Sequence record: MZ375246.1
DNA from: Escherichia phage T7
Reading direction: 5' to 3' (one strand)
DNA length: 37,681 nucleotides
The notes under the pieces are model-generated. The model was not told the origin of the DNA. It did not search any database and was given only the letters and a program-made list of their open reading frames with translations. Each line of letters starts with the position of its first letter. Position 1 is the first letter of the stretch. This document shows positions 1-37,681 of the stretch, piece by piece. A program made the translations under genes and the position numbers.

Positions 1-141
1 CTCACAGTGTACGGACCTAAAGTTCCCCCATAGGGGGTACCTAAAGCCCAGCCAATCACCTAAAGTCAACCTTCGGTTGACCTTGAGGGTTCCCTAAGGG
101 TTTGTCTTTGGGTGTTACCTTGAGTGTCTCTCTGTGTCCCT
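1..141. repeat. Left terminal direct repeat (TR); window begins one base inside the genome end
   Basis: 1..141 is identical to 37541..37681; sequence matches the T7 terminal repetition. Confidence 0.9.
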
Positions 142-154
142 CTCTGTTACAGTC

Positions 155-325
155 TCCTAAAGTATCCTCCTAAAGTCACCTCCTAACGTCCATCCTAAAG
201 CCAACACCTAAAGCCTACACCTAAAGACCCATCAAGTCAACGCCTATCTTAAAGTTTAAACATAAAGACCAGACCTAAAGACCAGACCTAAAGACACTAC
301 ATAAAGACCAGACCTAAAGACGCCT
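155..325 (+). repeat. Left-end short repeat array next to TR (CCTAAAG / ACCTAAAGAC-type motifs)
   Basis: Repeated cctaaag, acacctaaag and aagaccagacctaaag units visible in the sequence; corresponds to the T7 left-end repeat region. Confidence 0.7.
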
Positions 326-368
326 TGTTGTTAGCCATAAAGTGATAACCTTTAATCATTGTCTTTAT

Positions 369-391
369 TAATACAACTCACTATAGGGAGA
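369..391 (+). promoter_or_regulatory. T7 RNA polymerase promoter phiOL
   Basis: taatacaactcactatagggaga; one mismatch to the 23-bp consensus (A at -11); position matches T7 phiOL. Confidence 0.8.
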
Positions 392-442
392 GACAACTTA
401 AAGAGACTTAAAAGATTAATTTAAAATTTATCAAAAAGAGTA

Positions 443-480
443 TTGACTTAAAGTCTAACCTATAGGATACTTACAGCCAT
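443..480 (+). promoter_or_regulatory. E. coli RNA polymerase early promoter A1
   Basis: ttgact (-35, 443..448), 17-bp spacer, gatact (-10, 466..471); matches T7 A1. Confidence 0.85.
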
Positions 481-569
481 CGAGAGGGACACGGCGAATA
501 GCCATCCCAATCGACACCGGGGTCAACCGGATAAGTAGACAGCCTGATAAGTCGCACGAAAAACAGGTA

Positions 570-608
570 TTGACAACATGAAGTAACATGCAGTAAGATA
601 CAAATCGC
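570..608 (+). promoter_or_regulatory. E. coli RNA polymerase early promoter A2
   Basis: ttgaca -35 at 570..575 and taagat -10 at 594..599; matches T7 A2. Confidence 0.8.
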
Positions 609-694
609 TAGGTAACACTAGCAGCGTCAACCGGGCGCACAGTGCCTTCTAGGTGACTTAAGCGCACCACGGCACATAAGGTGAAACAAAACGG

Positions 695-732
695 TTGACA
701 ACATGAAGTAAACACGGTACGATGTACCACAT
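695..732 (+). promoter_or_regulatory. E. coli RNA polymerase early promoter A3
   Basis: ttgaca -35 at 695..700 and tacgat -10 at 718..723; matches T7 A3. Confidence 0.8.
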
Positions 733-839
733 GAAACGACAGTGAGTCACCACACTGAAAGGTGATGCGGTCTAACGAAACCTGACCTAAGACGCTCTTT
801 AACAATCTGGTAAATAGCTCTTGAGTGCATGACTAGCGG

Positions 840-885
840 ATAACTCAAGGGTATCGCAAGGTGCCCTTTATGATATTCACTAATA
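840..885 (+). promoter_or_regulatory. RNase III processing hairpin R0.3
   Basis: Imperfect hairpin (caagggtatcgcaaggtgccctttatg) just upstream of gene 0.3, as in T7. Confidence 0.55.
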
Positions 886-905
886 ACTGCACGAGGTAAC
901 ACAAG

Positions 906-1259
906 ATGGCTATGTCTAACATGACTTACAACAACGTTTTCGACCACGCTTACGAAATGCTGAAAGAAAACATCCGTTATGATGACATCCGTGACACTGA
1001 TGACCTGCACGATGCTATTCACATGGCTGCCGATAATGCAGTTCCGCACTACTACGCTGACATCTTTAGCGTAATGGCAAGTGAGGGCATTGACCTTGAG
1101 TTCGAAGACTCTGGTCTGATGCCTGACACCAAGGACGTAATCCGCATCCTGCAAGCGCGTATCTATGAGCAATTAACGATTGACCTCTGGGAAGACGCAG
1201 AAGACTTGCTCAATGAATACTTGGAGGAAGTCGAGGAGTACGAGGAGGATGAAGAGTAA
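906..1259 (+). CDS. ocr: Ocr (gene 0.3): DNA-mimic inhibitor of type I restriction-modification / BREX
   Basis: 117-aa [22 protein letters not shown]...EEYEEDEE, acidic, matches T7 gp0.3. Confidence 0.97.
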
Positions 1260-1390
1260 TGTCTACTACCAACGTGCAATACGGTCTGACCGCTCAAACT
1301 GTACTTTTCTATAGCGACATGGGGCGGCGTGGCATAGACGAAAGGAAAAGGTTAAAGCCAAGAAACTCGCCGCACTTGAACAGGCACTAG
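1259..1390 (+). pseudogene. 0.4: Gene 0.4 remnant: first ~21 codons ([21 protein letters not shown]) fused out of context to sequence from the end of the 0.6 region; 43-codon ORF
   Basis: ATG overlaps the ocr stop (taatg) as in T7; downstream text jumps to the sequence that immediately precedes gene 0.7. Implies about 563 bp deleted. Confidence 0.6.
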
Positions 1391-1438
1391 CCAACACACT
1401 GAACGCTATCTCATAACGAACATAAAGGACACAATGCA

Positions 1439-2518
1439 ATGAACATTACCGACATCATGAACGCTATCGACGCAATCAAAGCACTGCCAATCTGTGAACT
1501 TGACAAGCGTCAAGGTATGCTTATCGACTTACTGGTCGAGATGGTCAACAGCGAGACGTGTGATGGCGAGCTAACCGAACTAAATCAGGCACTTGAGCAT
1601 CAAGATTGGTGGACTACCTTGAAGTGTCTCACGGCTGACGCAGGGTTCAAGATGCTCGGTAATGGTCACTTCTCGGCTGCTTATAGTCACCCGCTGCTAC
1701 CTAACAGAGTGATTAAGGTGGGCTTTAAGAAAGAGGATTCAGGCGCAGCCTATACCGCATTCTGCCGCATGTATCAGGGTCGTCCTGGTATCCCTAACGT
1801 CTACGATGTACAGCGCCACGCTGGATGCTATACGGTGGTACTTGACGCACTTAAGGATTGCGAGCGTTTCAACAATGATGCCCATTATAAATACGCTGAG
1901 ATTGCAAGCGACATCATTGATTGCAATTCGGATGAGCATGATGAGTTAACTGGATGGGATGGTGAGTTTGTTGAAACTTGTAAACTAATCCGCAAGTTCT
2001 TTGAGGGCATCGCCTCATTCGACATGCATAGCGGGAACATCATGTTCTCAAATGGAGACGTACCATACATCACCGACCCGGTATCATTCTCGCAGAAGAA
2101 AGACGGTGGCGCATTCAGCATCGACCCTGAGGAACTCATCAAGGAAGTCGAGGAAGTCGCACGACAGAAAGAAATTGACCGCGCTAAGGCCCGTAAAGAA
2201 CGTCACGAGGGGCGCTTAGAGGCACGCAGATTCAAACGTCGCAACCGCAAGGCACGTAAAGCACACAAAGCTAAGCGCGAAAGAATGCTTGCTGCGTGGC
2301 GATGGGCTGAACGTCAAGAACGGCGTAACCATGAGGTAGCTGTAGATGTACTAGGAAGAACCAATAACGCTATGCTCTGGGTCAACATGTTCTCTGGGGA
2401 CTTTAAGGCGCTTGAGGAACGAATCGCGCTGCACTGGCGTAATGCTGACCGGATGGCTATCGCTAATGGTCTTACGCTCAACATTGATAAGCAACTTGAC
2501 GCAATGTTAATGGGCTGA
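1439..2518 (+). CDS. 0.7: Gene 0.7 protein kinase / host transcription shutoff
   Basis: 359-aa [20 protein letters not shown]..., matches T7 gp0.7. Confidence 0.97.
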
Positions 2519-2585
2519 TAGTCTTATCTTACAGGTCATCTGCGGGTGGCCTGAATAGGTACGATTTACTAACTGGAAGAGGCAC
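2519..2585 (+). promoter_or_regulatory. Intergenic region with RNase III site R1 (and host promoter C area)
   Basis: Positional correspondence to the T7 0.7-gene 1 intergenic region; hairpin potential (ggtcatctgcgggtggcc). Confidence 0.4.
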
Positions 2586-2588
2586 TAA

Positions 2589-5240
2589 ATGAACACGATT
2601 AACATCGCTAAGAACGACTTCTCTGACATCGAACTGGCTGCTATCCCGTTCAACACTCTGGCTGACCATTACGGTGAGCGTTTAGCTCGCGAACAGTTGG
2701 CCCTTGAGCATGAGTCTTACGAGATGGGTGAAGCACGCTTCCGCAAGATGTTTGAGCGTCAACTTAAAGCTGGTGAGGTTGCGGATAACGCTGCCGCCAA
2801 GCCTCTCATCACTACCCTACTCCCTAAGATGATTGCACGCATCAACGACTGGTTTGAGGAAGTGAAAGCTAAGCGCGGCAAGCGCCCGACAGCCTTCCAG
2901 TTCCTGCAAGAAATCAAGCCGGAAGCCGTAGCGTACATCACCATTAAGACCACTCTGGCTTGCCTAACCAGTGCTGACAATACAACCGTTCAGGCTGTAG
3001 CAAGCGCAATCGGTCGGGCCATTGAGGACGAGGCTCGCTTCGGTCGTATCCGTGACCTTGAAGCTAAGCACTTCAAGAAAAACGTTGAGGAACAACTCAA
3101 CAAGCGCGTAGGGCACGTCTACAAGAAAGCATTTATGCGAGTTGTCGAGGCTGACATGCTCTCTAAGGGTCTACTCGGTGGCGAGGCGTGGTCTTCGTGG
3201 CATAAGGAAGACTCTATTCATGTAGGAGTACGCTGCATCGAGATGCTCATTGAGTCAACCGGAATGGTTAGCTTACACCGCCAAAATGCTGGCGTAGTAG
3301 GTCAAGACTCTGAGACTATCGAACTCGCACCTGAATACGCTGAGGCTATCGCAACCCGTGCAGGTGCGCTGGCTGGCATCTCTCCGATGTTCCAACCTTG
3401 CGTAGTTCCTCCTAAGCCGTGGACTGGCATTACTGGTGGTGGCTATTGGGCTAACGGTCGTCGTCCTCTGGCGCTGGTGCGTACTCACAGTAAGAAAGCA
3501 CTGATGCGCTACGAAGACGTTTACATGCCTGAGGTGTACAAAGCGATTAACATTGCGCAAAACACCGCATGGAAAATCAACAAGAAAGTCCTAGCGGTCG
3601 CCAACGTAATCACCAAGTGGAAGCATTGTCCGGTCGAGGACATCCCTGCGATTGAGCGTGAAGAACTCCCGATGAAACCGGAAGACATCGACATGAATCC
3701 TGAGGCTCTCACCGCGTGGAAACGTGCTGCCGCTGCTGTGTACCGCAAGGACAAGGCTCGCAAGTCTCGCCGTATCAGCCTTGAGTTCATGCTTGAGCAA
3801 GCCAATAAGTTTGCTAACCATAAGGCCATCTGGTTCCCTTACAACATGGACTGGCGCGGTCGTGTTTACGCTGTGTCAATGTTCAACCCGCAAGGTAACG
3901 ATATGACCAAAGGACTGCTTACGCTGGCGAAAGGTAAACCAATCGGTAAGGAAGGTTACTACTGGCTGAAAATCCACGGTGCAAACTGTGCGGGTGTCGA
4001 TAAGGTTCCGTTCCCTGAGCGCATCAAGTTCATTGAGGAAAACCACGAGAACATCATGGCTTGCGCTAAGTCTCCACTGGAGAACACTTGGTGGGCTGAG
4101 CAAGATTCTCCGTTCTGCTTCCTTGCGTTCTGCTTTGAGTACGCTGGGGTACAGCACCACGGCCTGAGCTATAACTGCTCCCTTCCGCTGGCGTTTGACG
4201 GGTCTTGCTCTGGCATCCAGCACTTCTCCGCGATGCTCCGAGATGAGGTAGGTGGTCGCGCGGTTAACTTGCTTCCTAGTGAAACCGTTCAGGACATCTA
4301 CGGGATTGTTGCTAAGAAAGTCAACGAGATTCTACAAGCAGACGCAATCAATGGGACCGATAACGAAGTAGTTACCGTGACCGATGAGAACACTGGTGAA
4401 ATCTCTGAGAAAGTCAAGCTGGGCACTAAGGCACTGGCTGGTCAATGGCTGGCTTACGGTGTTACTCGCAGTGTGACTAAGCGTTCAGTCATGACGCTAG
4501 CTTACGGGTCCAAAGAGTTCGGCTTCCGTCAACAAGTGCTGGAAGATACCATTCAGCCAGCTATTGATTCCGGCAAGGGTCTGATGTTCACTCAGCCGAA
4601 TCAGGCTGCTGGATACATGGCTAAGCTGATTTGGGAATCTGTGAGCGTGACGGTGGTAGCTGCGGTTGAAGCAATGAACTGGCTTAAGTCTGCTGCTAAG
4701 CTGCTGGCTGCTGAGGTCAAAGATAAGAAGACTGGAGAGATTCTTCGCAAGCGTTGCGCTGTGCATTGGGTAACTCCTGATGGTTTCCCTGTGTGGCAGG
4801 AATACAAGAAGCCTATTCAGACGCGCTTGAACCTGATGTTCCTCGGTCAGTTCCGCTTACAGCCTACCATTAACACCAACAAAGATAGCGAGATTGATGC
4901 ACACAAACAGGAGTCTGGTATCGCTCCTAACTTTGTACACAGCCAAGACGGTAGCCACCTTCGTAAGACTGTAGTGTGGGCACACGAGAAGTACGGAATC
5001 GAATCTTTTGCACTGATTCACGACTCCTTCGGTACCATTCCGGCTGACGCTGCGAACCTGTTCAAAGCAGTGCGCGAAACTATGGTTGACACATATGAGT
5101 CTTGTGATGTACTGGCTGATTTCTACGACCAGTTCGCTGACCAGTTGCACGAGTCTCAATTGGACAAAATGCCAGCACTTCCGGCTAAAGGTAACTTGAA
5201 CCTCCGTGACATCTTAGAGTCGGACTTCGCGTTCGCGTAA
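2589..5240 (+). CDS. 1: T7 RNA polymerase (gene 1), single-subunit DNA-dependent RNA polymerase
   Basis: 883-aa ORF MNTINIAKNDFSDIELAAIPFNTLADHYG...DFAFA. Confidence 0.99.
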   Translation: MNTINIAKNDFSDIELAAIPFNTLADHYGERLAREQLALEHESYEMGEARFRKMFERQLKAGEVADNAAAKPLITTLLPKMIARINDWFEEVKAKRGKRPTAFQFLQEIKPEAVAYITIKTTLACLTSADNTTVQAVASAIGRAIEDEARFGRIRDLEAKHFKKNVEEQLNKRVGHVYKKAFMRVVEADMLSKGLLGGEAWSSWHKEDSIHVGVRCIEMLIESTGMVSLHRQNAGVVGQDSETIELAPEYAEAIATRAGALAGISPMFQPCVVPPKPWTGITGGGYWANGRRPLALVRTHSKKALMRYEDVYMPEVYKAINIAQNTAWKINKKVLAVANVITKWKHCPVEDIPAIEREELPMKPEDIDMNPEALTAWKRAAAAVYRKDKARKSRRISLEFMLEQANKFANHKAIWFPYNMDWRGRVYAVSMFNPQGNDMTKGLLTLAKGKPIGKEGYYWLKIHGANCAGVDKVPFPERIKFIEENHENIMACAKSPLENTWWAEQDSPFCFLAFCFEYAGVQHHGLSYNCSLPLAFDGSCSGIQHFSAMLRDEVGGRAVNLLPSETVQDIYGIVAKKVNEILQADAINGTDNEVVTVTDENTGEISEKVKLGTKALAGQWLAYGVTRSVTKRSVMTLAYGSKEFGFRQQVLEDTIQPAIDSGKGLMFTQPNQAAGYMAKLIWESVSVTVVAAVEAMNWLKSAAKLLAAEVKDKKTGEILRKRCAVHWVTPDGFPVWQEYKKPIQTRLNLMFLGQFRLQPTINTNKDSEIDAHKQESGIAPNFVHSQDGSHLRKTVVWAHEKYGIESFALIHDSFGTIPADAANLFKAVRETMVDTYESCDVLADFYDQFADQLHESQLDKMPALPAKGNLNLRDILESDFAFA

Positions 5241-5248
5241 CGCCAAAT

Positions 5249-5271
5249 CAATACGACTCACTATAGAGGGA
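5249..5271 (+). promoter_or_regulatory. T7 promoter phi1.1A
   Basis: caatacgactcactatagaggga. Confidence 0.85.
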
Positions 5272-5274
5272 CAA

Positions 5275-5320
5275 ACTCAAGGTCATTCGCAAGAGTGGCC
5301 TTTATGATTGACCTTCTTCC
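5275..5320 (+). promoter_or_regulatory. RNase III site R1.1 hairpin
   Basis: Palindromic aaggtcattcgcaagagtggcctttatgattgacctt. Confidence 0.6.
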
Positions 5321-5323
5321 GGT

Positions 5324-5346
5324 TAATACGACTCACTATAGGAGAA
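5324..5346 (+). promoter_or_regulatory. T7 promoter phi1.1B
   Basis: taatacgactcactataggagaa. Confidence 0.85.
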
Positions 5347-5424
5347 CCTTAAGGTTTAACTTTAAGACCCTTAAGTGTTAATTAGAGATTTAAATTAAAG
5401 AATTACTAAGAGAGGACTTTAAGT

Positions 5425-5553
5425 ATGCGTAACTTCGAAAAGATGACCAAACGTTCTAACCGTAATGCTCGTGACTTCGAGGCAACCAAAGGTCGCAAGT
5501 TGAATAAGACTAAGCGTGACCGCTCTCACAAGCGTAGCTGGGAGGGTCAGTAA
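5425..5553 (+). CDS. 1.1: Gene 1.1 small basic protein
   Basis: 42-codon ORF MRNFEKMTKRSNRNARDFEATKGRKLNKTKRDRSHKRSWEGQ; position matches T7. Confidence 0.85.
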   Translation: MRNFEKMTKRSNRNARDFEATKGRKLNKTKRDRSHKRSWEGQ

Positions 5554-5554
5554 G

Positions 5555-5812
5555 ATGGGACGTTTATATAGTGGTAATCTGGCAGCATTCAAGGCAGCAA
5601 CAAACAAGCTGTTCCAGTTAGACTTAGCGGTCATTTATGATGACTGGTATGATGCCTATACAAGAAAAGATTGCATACGGTTACGTATTGAGGACAGGAG
5701 TGGAAACCTGATTGATACTAGCACCTTCTACCACCACGACGAGGACGTTCTGTTCAATATGTGTACTGATTGGTTGAACCATATGTATGACCAGTTGAAG
5801 GACTGGAAGTAA
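5555..5812 (+). CDS. 1.2: Gene 1.2 inhibitor of host dGTP triphosphohydrolase (Dgt)
   Basis: 85-aa MGRLYSGNLAAFKAATNKLFQ...DQLKDWK (internal start within track ORF 5516..5812). Confidence 0.93.
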   Translation: MGRLYSGNLAAFKAATNKLFQLDLAVIYDDWYDAYTRKDCIRLRIEDRSGNLIDTSTFYHHDEDVLFNMCTDWLNHMYDQLKDWK

Positions 5813-5832
5813 TACGACTCAGTATAGGGACA
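5810..5832 (+). promoter_or_regulatory. T7 promoter phi1.3
   Basis: taatacgactcagtatagggaca (G at -5 as in T7 phi1.3). Confidence 0.85.
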
Positions 5833-5872
5833 ATGCTTAAGGTCGCTCTCTAGGAGTGGCCTTAGTCATTTA
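5833..5872 (+). promoter_or_regulatory. RNase III site R1.3 hairpin
   Basis: gcttaaggtcgctctctaggagtggccttagtc stem-loop. Confidence 0.55.
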
Positions 5873-5892
5873 ACCAATAGGAGATAAACATT

Positions 5893-6972
5893 ATGATGAA
5901 CATTAAGACTAACCCGTTTAAAGCCGTGTCTTTCGTAGAGTCTGCCATTAAGAAGGCTCTGGATAACGCTGGGTATCTTATCGCTGAAATCAAGTACGAT
6001 GGTGTACGCGGGAACATCTGCGTAGACAATACTGCTAACAGTTACTGGCTCTCTCGTGTATCTAAAACGATTCCGGCACTGGAGCACTTAAACGGGTTTG
6101 ATGTTCGCTGGAAGCGTCTACTGAACGATGACCGTTGCTTCTACAAAGATGGCTTTATGCTTGATGGGGAACTCATGGTCAAGGGCGTAGACTTTAACAC
6201 AGGGTCCGGCCTACTGCGTACCAAATGGACTGACACGAAGAACCAAGAGTTCCATGAAGAGTTATTCGTTGAACCAATCCGTAAGAAAGATAAAGTTCCC
6301 TTTAAGCTGCACACTGGACACCTTCACATAAAACTGTACGCTATCCTCCCGCTGCACATCGTGGAGTCTGGAGAAGACTGTGATGTCATGACGTTGCTCA
6401 TGCAGGAACACGTTAAGAACATGCTGCCTCTGCTACAGGAATACTTCCCTGAAATCGAATGGCAAGCGGCTGAATCTTACGAGGTCTACGATATGGTAGA
6501 ACTACAGCAACTGTACGAGCAGAAGCGAGCAGAAGGCCATGAGGGTCTCATTGTGAAAGACCCGATGTGTATCTATAAGCGCGGTAAGAAATCTGGCTGG
6601 TGGAAAATGAAACCTGAGAACGAAGCTGACGGTATCATTCAGGGTCTGGTATGGGGTACAAAAGGTCTGGCTAATGAAGGTAAAGTGATTGGTTTTGAGG
6701 TGCTTCTTGAGAGTGGTCGTTTAGTTAACGCCACGAATATCTCTCGCGCCTTAATGGATGAGTTCACTGAGACAGTAAAAGAGGCCACCCTAAGTCAATG
6801 GGGATTCTTTAGCCCATACGGTATTGGCGACAACGATGCTTGTACTATTAACCCTTACGATGGCTGGGCGTGTCAAATTAGCTACATGGAGGAAACACCT
6901 GATGGCTCTTTGCGGCACCCATCGTTCGTAATGTTCCGTGGCACCGAGGACAACCCTCAAGAGAAAATGTAA
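5893..6972 (+). CDS. 1.3: ATP-dependent DNA ligase (gene 1.3)
   Basis: 359-aa ORF MMNIKTNPFKAVSF...; ligase KYDGVRG motif (IKYDGVRGN) present. Confidence 0.98.
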   Translation: MMNIKTNPFKAVSFVESAIKKALDNAGYLIAEIKYDGVRGNICVDNTANSYWLSRVSKTIPALEHLNGFDVRWKRLLNDDRCFYKDGFMLDGELMVKGVDFNTGSGLLRTKWTDTKNQEFHEELFVEPIRKKDKVPFKLHTGHLHIKLYAILPLHIVESGEDCDVMTLLMQEHVKNMLPLLQEYFPEIEWQAAESYEVYDMVELQQLYEQKRAEGHEGLIVKDPMCIYKRGKKSGWWKMKPENEADGIIQGLVWGTKGLANEGKVIGFEVLLESGRLVNATNISRALMDEFTETVKEATLSQWGFFSPYGIGDNDACTINPYDGWACQISYMEETPDGSLRHPSFVMFRGTEDNPQEKM

Positions 6973-6977
6973 TCACA

Positions 6978-7010
6978 CTGGCTCACCTTCGGGTGGGCCT
7001 TTCTGCGTTT
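6978..7010 (+). terminator. TE, intrinsic terminator for host RNA polymerase (end of early region)
   Basis: GC-rich hairpin ggctcaccttcgggtgggcc followed by tttctgcgttt. Confidence 0.8.
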
Positions 7011-7022
7011 ATAAGGAGACAC

Positions 7023-7045
7023 TTTTACGACTCACTAAAGGAGGT
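7023..7045 (+). promoter_or_regulatory. T7 promoter phi1.5, altered at -16/-15 by the upstream deletion junction
   Basis: ttttacgactcactaaaggaggt; consensus TAAT at -17..-14 reads tttt here. Confidence 0.7.
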
Positions 7046-7428: not shown

Positions 7429-8010
7429 TGGGACTGTTAGATGGTGAAGCCTGGGAAAAAGAAAACCCGCCAGTACAAGCAACTGGGTGTATAGCTTGCT
7501 TAGAGAAAGATGACCGTTATCCACACACCTGTAACAAAGGAGCTAACGATATGACCGAACGTGAACAAGAGATGATCATTAAGTTGATAGACAATAATGA
7601 AGGTCGCCCAGATGATTTGAATGGCTGCGGTATTCTCTGCTCCAATGTCCCTTGCCACCTCTGCCCCGCAAATAACGATCAAAAGATAACCTTAGGTGAA
7701 ATCCGAGCGATGGACCCACGTAAACCACATCTGAATAAACCTGAGGTAACTCCTACAGATGACCAGCCTTCCGCTGAGACAATCGAAGGTGTCACTAAGC
7801 CTTCCCACTACATGCTGTTTGACGACATTGAGGCTATCGAAGTGATTGCTCGTTCAATGACCGTTGAGCAGTTCAAGGGATACTGCTTCGGTAACATCTT
7901 AAAGTACAGACTACGTGCTGGTAAGAAGTCAGAGTTAGCGTACTTAGAGAAAGACCTAGCGAAAGCAGACTTCTATAAAGAACTCTTTGAGAAACATAAG
8001 GATAAATGTT

Positions 8011-10423: not shown

Positions 10424-12235
<1,812 letters not shown>

Positions 12236-12303
12236 CAGGTTTCTTGACAGTTGTTTCATATGAAGAGATTGTTAAGTCACGATAATCAATAGGAGAAATC
12301 AAT

Positions 12304-37339: not shown

Positions 37340-37387
37340 ATGTTCCGCTTATTGTTGAACCTACTGCGGCATAGAGTCAAGTCCTAA
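37340..37387 (+). pseudogene. 19.5: Gene 19.5 remnant (MFRLLLNLLRH... then out-of-context tail; 15 codons)
   Basis: ATG with ggagga RBS at the expected position, but the ORF stops after 15 codons; offset arithmetic implies about 189 bp missing here. Confidence 0.55.
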
Positions 37388-37539: not shown

Positions 37540-37681
37540 TCTCACAGTGTACGGACCTAAAGTTCCCCCATAGGGGGTACCTAAAGCCCAGCCAATCACC
37601 TAAAGTCAACCTTCGGTTGACCTTGAGGGTTCCCTAAGGGTTTGTCTTTGGGTGTTACCTTGAGTGTCTCTCTGTGTCCCT
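37540..37681. repeat. Right terminal direct repeat (TR)
   Basis: 37541..37681 is identical to 1..141. Confidence 0.9.

Follow-up and report, generated by a model that had tools for sequence, protein, structure and literature searches.

Viable deletions in the early region of bacteriophage T7 (genes 0.3-0.7), lying at short direct repeats and arising without CRISPR, are reportedly known from the work of Studier in the 1970s, and the Masker laboratory is said to have described break-stimulated deletion between direct repeats in T7 in the 1990s. When T7 is grown under SpCas9 in E. coli MG1655, deletions in non-essential genes remove the target and keep one copy of the flanking repeat (PMC11294054). 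The joining is phage-encoded, independent of recA and recBCD, and less frequent without the ligase gene 1.3, and Cas9 cutting raises T7 deletions to about 1e-2 of progeny (PMC11294054). The repeats used in this T7 escape are exact, 8-15 bp long, and mostly 30-50% GC. The 'minihomology' escape of phage T4, as cited in PMC11294054 (ref. 34 there), follows the same logic, in which a Cas cut is followed by a short-repeat deletion and an escape mutant; the recombinase in that case is UvsX.

A second described system is CiPGr, which took T7 through 300 passages on E. coli MG1655 cells equipped with SpCas9 and a plasmid pool of spacers against non-essential genes (main text of PMC9825161). Each plasmid supplied one spacer and a repair template of 2 × 50 bp, whose intended deletion was 100 bp or a complete gene, and clones were named L or S for large or small plaques (PMC9825161). 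According to the same text, the mutants were mostly below wild type in fitness, and Yuan et al. 2022 report the loss of "large fragments (gp0.3-0.6, gp4.3-4.7 and gp19.5)", which they consider undesigned and a probable CRISPR escape. Both the loss of the 0.4-0.6 block and the mechanism of escape are already known. The genomes of the series are deposited as MZ375233-293 and OL9647xx.

The DNA analysed here, the window, is a single stretch of 37,681 nucleotides. Its closest record in the deposited T7 collection, and the only colinear one, is MZ375254.1 ("Mutant T7 clone T7_110S"), from which it differs by eight substitutions (window 216, 4499, 8520, 17558, 21046, 30764, 30961, and 30970) and by the lack of the first base; these differences may reflect another isolate or version, or altered input. 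By this comparison the window is essentially a T7 clone of the T7_110S genotype, a small-plaque isolate of transfer 110 in the CiPGr series. The deletion described below is the same object as the gp0.3-0.6 'large fragment' loss of PMC9825161, with the difference that gene 0.3 is intact in the window's allele.

Alignment with the T7 reference NC_001604 shows a gap of exactly 563 bp in the window (ref 1342–1904), with the junction at window 1322|1323. The exact match on the left ends at ref 1341 and the exact match on the right begins at ref 1904, both of which are window 1322; the ambiguity of the junction is therefore 1 bp, a G common to both flanks. An earlier sequence-only reading had put the missing DNA at about 563 bp, and the alignment gives that figure to the base. 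The distance from the 0.3 stop to the 0.7 start is 179 bp in the window vs 742 bp in NC_001604, and so the short spacing is not one that the reference shares. Outside the deletion, window 1-1322 differs from NC_001604 by 2 substitutions and one 18-bp deletion, and window 1322-7025 by 2 substitutions. In total, the window contains seven length differences (18 + 563 + 156 + 292 + 1,019 + 189 + 18 bp), and these together with the absent first base add up to 39,937 − 37,681 without remainder. The loss of 0.4–0.6 is a real deletion in a T7 derivative. The features of the region are as follows.

906..1259, plus strand: gene 0.3 (ocr), intact; equals NC_001604 925-1278 with no differences; its stop overlaps the 0.4 ATG by one base
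1259..1390, plus strand: chimeric 43-codon ORF, by translation gp0.4 residues 1-21 followed by the C-terminal 22 residues of gp0.6B (GRRGIDERKRLKPRNSPHLNRH); stop 1388-1390 = ref 1970-1972
1259..1322, plus strand: gene 0.4 remnant (ref 1278-1341); the exact reference match ends at window 1322 = ref 1341
1321..1324, no strand: deletion junction within a run of four G, the flanks meeting at 1322 by alignment; the same in 31 GenBank clones
1322..1333, no strand: right-hand copy (ref 1904-1915, GGGCGGCGTGGC) of a 12-nt imperfect direct repeat, retained, from the repeat comparison
1323..1390, plus strand: 3' remnant of the 0.6B frame (ref 1905-1972), by translation
1391..1438, plus strand: spacer upstream of 0.7 with its ribosome-binding region (AAGGA), unchanged and 100% identical to ref 1973-2020
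1439..2518, plus strand: gene 0.7 protein kinase, intact, from the ORF list and the reference comparison

The deleted interval takes with it gene 0.4 codons 22–51, all of gene 0.5 (ref 1496-1639) and gene 0.6A (ref 1636-1797), and most of 0.6B, which runs to ref 1972. The E. coli promoter B (ref 1514) also lies inside it, as does the stem-loop of RNase III site R0.5 (ref 1428–1479, with a putative cut near 1469), whose position was transferred onto the reference from the annotation of T7.1 (DQ100054). In the reference this stem-loop folds strongly (z = -4.8 vs shuffled controls), and it is absent from the window. The inventory of losses given by the sequence-only reading (0.4, 0.5, 0.6A/B, R0.5, and promoter B) is borne out, since each element is either within ref 1342–1904 or cut by it.

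What remains of gene 0.4 begins normally. Its ATG (1259-1261) overlaps the ocr stop (TAA, 1257-1259) by one base, residues 1-21 are those of gp0.4, and the sequence diverges at codon 22, all much as had been read from the letters alone; the 43-codon chimeric ORF at 1259..1390 was likewise recovered on translation. The same reading had the sequence jump to DNA directly upstream of 0.7. This is correct for the position, but the segment is in fact the 3' end of the 0.6B frame, to which the 0.4 remnant is fused in frame and at whose stop the fusion terminates. A minus-strand ORF (1266-1439, 57 codons, TTG start) that runs antisense across the junction was taken as a chance ORF; the genome is otherwise fully plus-strand. 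A search of both strands at the junction revealed no newly created promoter, terminator, stable RNA structure, or Rfam family.

Recurrence of this loss was followed through the series, in which 59 of 60 clones were classified and MZ375246 was left out. The alleles found are listed here.

Wild type: 2 clones, both from transfer 10, T7_10L and T7_10S (MZ375233, MZ375234), 39,938 bp, with 0.4-0.6 present
Allele A (that of the window): 31 clones, all deposited as "Mutant Escherichia phage T7 clone T7_nnL/S", earliest at transfer 30; 563 bp deleted; junction 1 bp (G)
Allele B: 7 clones, plus OL964739–41; the same 563 bp in the same register as A; junction GTGGC
Allele C: 3 clones, plus OL964748–50; 1,480 bp deleted, 0.3 fused to 0.7; 13-bp exact repeat AGGAAGTCGAGGA
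Allele D1: 10 clones, plus MZ375293; 676 bp deleted; junction CTGAACGCT
Allele D2: 5 clones; the same 676 bp in the same register as D1; junction CTGACCGCT
Allele E: 1 clone, MZ375272 (T7_200S); 699 bp deleted, from ref 1341 to ref 2041 in gene 0.7; no base in common at the junction

Every clone examined from transfer 20 onward (57/57) has lost 0.4–0.6. The junctions indicate that at least four independent undesigned deletions (A/B, C, D1/D2, and E) lie behind a loss that the main text of PMC9825161 pools under one label. That text also does not describe the anatomy of the junctions, with their imperfect repeats and in-register pairs of alleles. Allele C, at its 13-bp exact repeat, is a deletion of the classical Studier/Masker type. 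Allele E begins at the left breakpoint of allele A (ref 1341) and resembles a second deletion, of 136 bp, on an allele-A genome; if so, the piece of 0.6B that allele A retains would seem to have remained under attack.

Several related observations were made among these and other records. In OL964739 (T7_5t1, allele B), the substitution A1985C makes the D repeat's right copy (CTGAACGCT) read like its left copy (CTGACCGCT). The substitution lies 10 nt from a minus-strand PAM (CCA, ref 1973-1975), and it could have come from a D2 genome by conversion or be a point mutation that gave escape. Four genomes from another laboratory, PV223880-3, propagated on the host BL21(DE3), carry a 0.3-0.7 deletion of about 1,481 bp with its junction at ref 1258/2737. 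As the junction of PV223881 adjoins the 13-bp repeat of allele C, the area may be a general deletion hot spot of T7. Two further T7 records from other laboratories were considered as possible sharers of the window's junction and were rejected: AY264777 lacks 0.7 instead, MG833025 has an engineered RNAP insertion, and the junction occurs in neither.

The window's junction does not have a clean direct repeat. Exact identity between the flanks is limited to 1 bp, and homology appears only when mismatches are allowed, in which case the left copy at ref 1341–1352 (GTGCGCTGTGGC) and the right copy at ref 1904–1915 (GGGCGGCGTGGC) match at 9/12 positions. Thus, the short direct repeat expected by the sequence-only reading is present as a 12-nt imperfect repeat, and not as an exact one. 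Among 28,368 permissible endpoint pairs, the register shared by alleles A and B is one of 7 with at least 9/12 identity. The two alleles differ only at the three mismatched positions of the repeat; allele A has the bases of the right copy at all three, and allele B has those of the left copy at all three. D1 and D2 show the same in-register pairing at an 8/9 repeat, CTGA[C/A]CGCT. If a further deletion arose independently and at random, it would share the register (to within 12 nt) with a chance of about 7e-4. The A/B pair points to annealing of the repeats with a heteroduplex intermediate, or to slippage, as the origin of these junctions.

The longest exact repeat able to delete the block is a 10-bp sequence, CAATGGCACA (ref 1369-1378 and 1822-1831), which lies inside the deleted interval and was used in none of the 57 deletion-bearing clones examined. 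Counted by motif rather than by library spacers, 56 of the 67 candidate SpCas9 NGG sites in ref 1270-2020 are destroyed in the window, and 8 candidate sites persist unmutated in the gene remnants. A deletion through CAATGGCACA would leave 22 such sites vs the 11 left in the window's allele, and this might be why the longer repeat was not used, although the count is suggestive only. In comparison with the repeats of PMC11294054, the one at the window's junction is 12 nt long, GC-rich, and has three mismatches, leaving exact identity of 1 bp in allele A and 5 bp (GTGGC) in its sister allele B. Since no exact repeat of 8–15 bp is found there, the window's deletion would be best described as an imperfect-repeat variant of T7 Cas9-escape joining.

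Altogether, the window represents a CiPGr clone whose 0.4-0.6 block was very probably lost through an undesigned deletion, begun by a Cas9 cut, completed by annealing at the imperfect repeat, and followed by selection. The T7_110S provenance and the account given in PMC9825161 support growth of this phage on cells with Cas9 and spacers against the deleted genes. The cut would have fallen inside the 0.4-0.6 block. The broken ends would then be resected, and the recombination and ligation machinery of the phage itself would rejoin them by annealing ref 1341-1352 with ref 1904-1915; the window retains gene 1.3 (ligase) without any change. Annealing of this kind would produce a heteroduplex with mismatches, and its two strands would segregate into two alleles. 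Allele A would come from the right-copy strand and look like a 1-bp junction, and allele B would come from the left-copy strand and look like a GTGGC junction. The deleted genome would be strongly selected, because it would have shed at one stroke most Cas9 targets of three to four neighbouring genes that the phage can do without; removal of this many targets in a single step fits selection under Cas9. Allele A was first sampled at transfer 30 and allele B only at transfer 150, and a single heteroduplex event thus requires that B was scarce to begin with. The timing would be explained equally well if recombination with wild type had converted the junction at a later stage, or if A and B went back to independent events at a hot spot.

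A different origin for the same junction is spontaneous slippage or template switching at the imperfect repeat, without Cas9, with the product enriched because the loss of 0.4-0.6, or a shorter genome, gave faster growth in shaken rich MG1655 culture. The T7 early region, to judge from Studier's deletion mutants, reportedly both tolerates and throws off deletions; slippage in either direction of replication also predicts in-register pairs that keep one repeat copy or the other; and the similar 0.3-0.7 deletion of PV223880-3 arose in an independent laboratory. The candidate Cas9 sites that persist in the remnants count on the same side. Faster growth is harder to reconcile with the literature, in which gp0.4 is reported as a growth advantage for T7 and not a cost (PMC5624674), and CiPGr mutants are described in the main text of PMC9825161 as mostly less fit than wild type. 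Furthermore, at least four independent block deletions swept within 20-40 transfers, and did so only under a regime that targets these genes, and Cas9 cutting has been shown experimentally to lift such deletions to the high frequency noted above (PMC11294054). Slippage without Cas9 is improbable as the origin of the window's deletion. The sequence-only reading regarded a short repeat at the junction as the signature of spontaneous deletion, an attribution that does not suit a clone from a Cas9 library experiment in which this class of loss is reported as undesigned and a probable CRISPR escape (main text of PMC9825161).

Homologous recombination with a plasmid template that specified the junction, that is, a designed CiPGr edit, is a very unlikely source. 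The experiment does install such deletions, and what looks like one is seen elsewhere in the window, where gene 1.4 has been cut exactly from ATG to stop with no microhomology. However, the cassettes hit one gene each (100 bp or the whole gene), and the present loss covers three to four genes together with intergenic DNA; its ends fall within ORFs, at codon 22 of 0.4 and in the 0.6B extension; and the authors themselves call the large fragments undesigned (main text of PMC9825161). A gene-precise edit as the route of 0.4-0.6 loss was found in none of the 57 deletion-bearing clones. In addition, a synthetic template would yield one junction, so the in-register A and B variants speak against it. 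As for the window being misassembled, or coming from a natural relative of T7 without 0.4–0.6 from the outset, no point in support was found and the idea has next to no probability, given that the sequence on either side of the break is T7 at 100% identity and ORF 0.4 is interrupted by it, that the same junction occurs in 31 separately assembled clones across 270 transfers while the transfer-10 clones are full length, and that the seven length differences sum exactly to 39937 - 37681.

The window contains further changes besides the undesigned loss of 0.4-0.6. At window 7025|7026 the missing gene 1.4 corresponds to ref 7608-7763 (156 bp), and its exact removal is the signature of a designed homology-template edit, in contrast to the 0.4-0.6 loss. 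A 292-bp deletion in gene 3.8 (window 10515|10516, ref 11254-11545) also shows no microhomology and keeps the 3' end that overlaps the 4A start; it was probably designed, with its extent limited so as to leave gene 4 untouched. At window 12235-12247, a deletion of 1,019 bp begins at the end of gene 4.2 and reaches into 4.7. Its junction is a 13-nt imperfect repeat, ACAGG[A/T]TTCTTGA (12/13), with the base of the right copy kept, and this is the undesigned 'gp4.3-4.7' fragment named in the main text of PMC9825161. A reported hot spot for T7 escape, TCCAACGA, lies 17 nt upstream of this 4.2–4.7 junction and is not the junction used. Most of gene 19.5 is removed by a 189-bp deletion at window 37371-37379, at the 9-bp exact repeat ATAGAGTCA (ref 39420-39428 and 39609-39617), and this is the undesigned 'gp19.5' fragment of the same text.

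Changes near the genome ends were also seen. Both copies of the terminal repeat have lost 18 bp (ref 99-116) between two pentamers GGGTT, at window 98-102 and on the right at about 37637-37642, and A161C (window 142) also lies inside the terminal repeat. At window 386 (ref 405), the annotated start base of φOL is changed from A to G, converting ...CACTATAAGGAGA to ...CACTATAGGGAGA, which is nearer the strong-promoter consensus. The change is present in T7_30L, T7_150L, T7_5t1, and T7_110S and absent from T7_20L, indicating that it arose early and spread, and it may be adaptive.

The products lost with the deletion are gp0.4, the small hydrophobic gp0.5, and gp0.6A/B; gp0.6 is a reported inhibitor of MreB (PMC5624674). 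Functional gp0.4 is a two-helix protein of 51 residues with an interface composed of V15, V22, W28, M32, L35, and Y39, and the substitutions V22A, W28A, M32A, L35A, and Y39A each abolish FtsZ inhibition (PMC13423816). In the window's remnant, which stops at residue 21 of gp0.4, a G takes the place of V22, and nothing is left of W28, M32, L35, and Y39. As these interface residues are missing, the gp0.4 remnant should be inactive, in agreement with the functional loss that the sequence-only reading had assigned to the deletion. The start of 0.4 can still serve for translation of the 43-residue 0.4'-'0.6B peptide, which is likely to be inert. The refactored genome T7.1 (DQ100054) is also viable with a disrupted 0.4, with the difference that its lesion is an engineered frameshift and that 0.5, 0.6, and R0.5 are kept. 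T7 early transcripts are processed by RNase III. With R0.5 lost, RNase III should leave the messages of 0.3 and 0.7 together on a single fragment.

The pairing of alleles also bears on how T7 joins broken DNA. Three repeats form the basis for the imperfect-repeat reading: the 9/12 repeat of the A/B pair, the 8/9 repeat of the D1/D2 pair, and the 12/13 repeat at the 4.2-4.7 deletion. On a tentative view, for which the chances are well below even, T7 break-induced joining may routinely use imperfect repeats by way of an uncorrected heteroduplex, with one repair event seeding two alleles. If this were true, junctions given the score '1-bp microhomology' would in reality have formed by annealing of repeats. 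Still less likely is that the fusion peptide of the majority allele has a selected function. The paired alleles, as evidence for heteroduplex and imperfect-repeat joining, are the sole element of this analysis that is mildly new.

For biology at large the window carries little weight, as it is a deposited laboratory mutant. Because it belongs to an engineered and evolved T7, its other oddities (the six further deletions and the φOL start base) need a check of provenance before any is called novel. Under multiplexed Cas9 pressure, T7 repeatedly drops the whole 0.4-0.6 block by undesigned deletions and not through the templates supplied, which bears on the design of phage genome engineering. The paired alleles offer a small, testable clue that imperfect repeats and segregation of a heteroduplex may take part in the escape deletions of T7.
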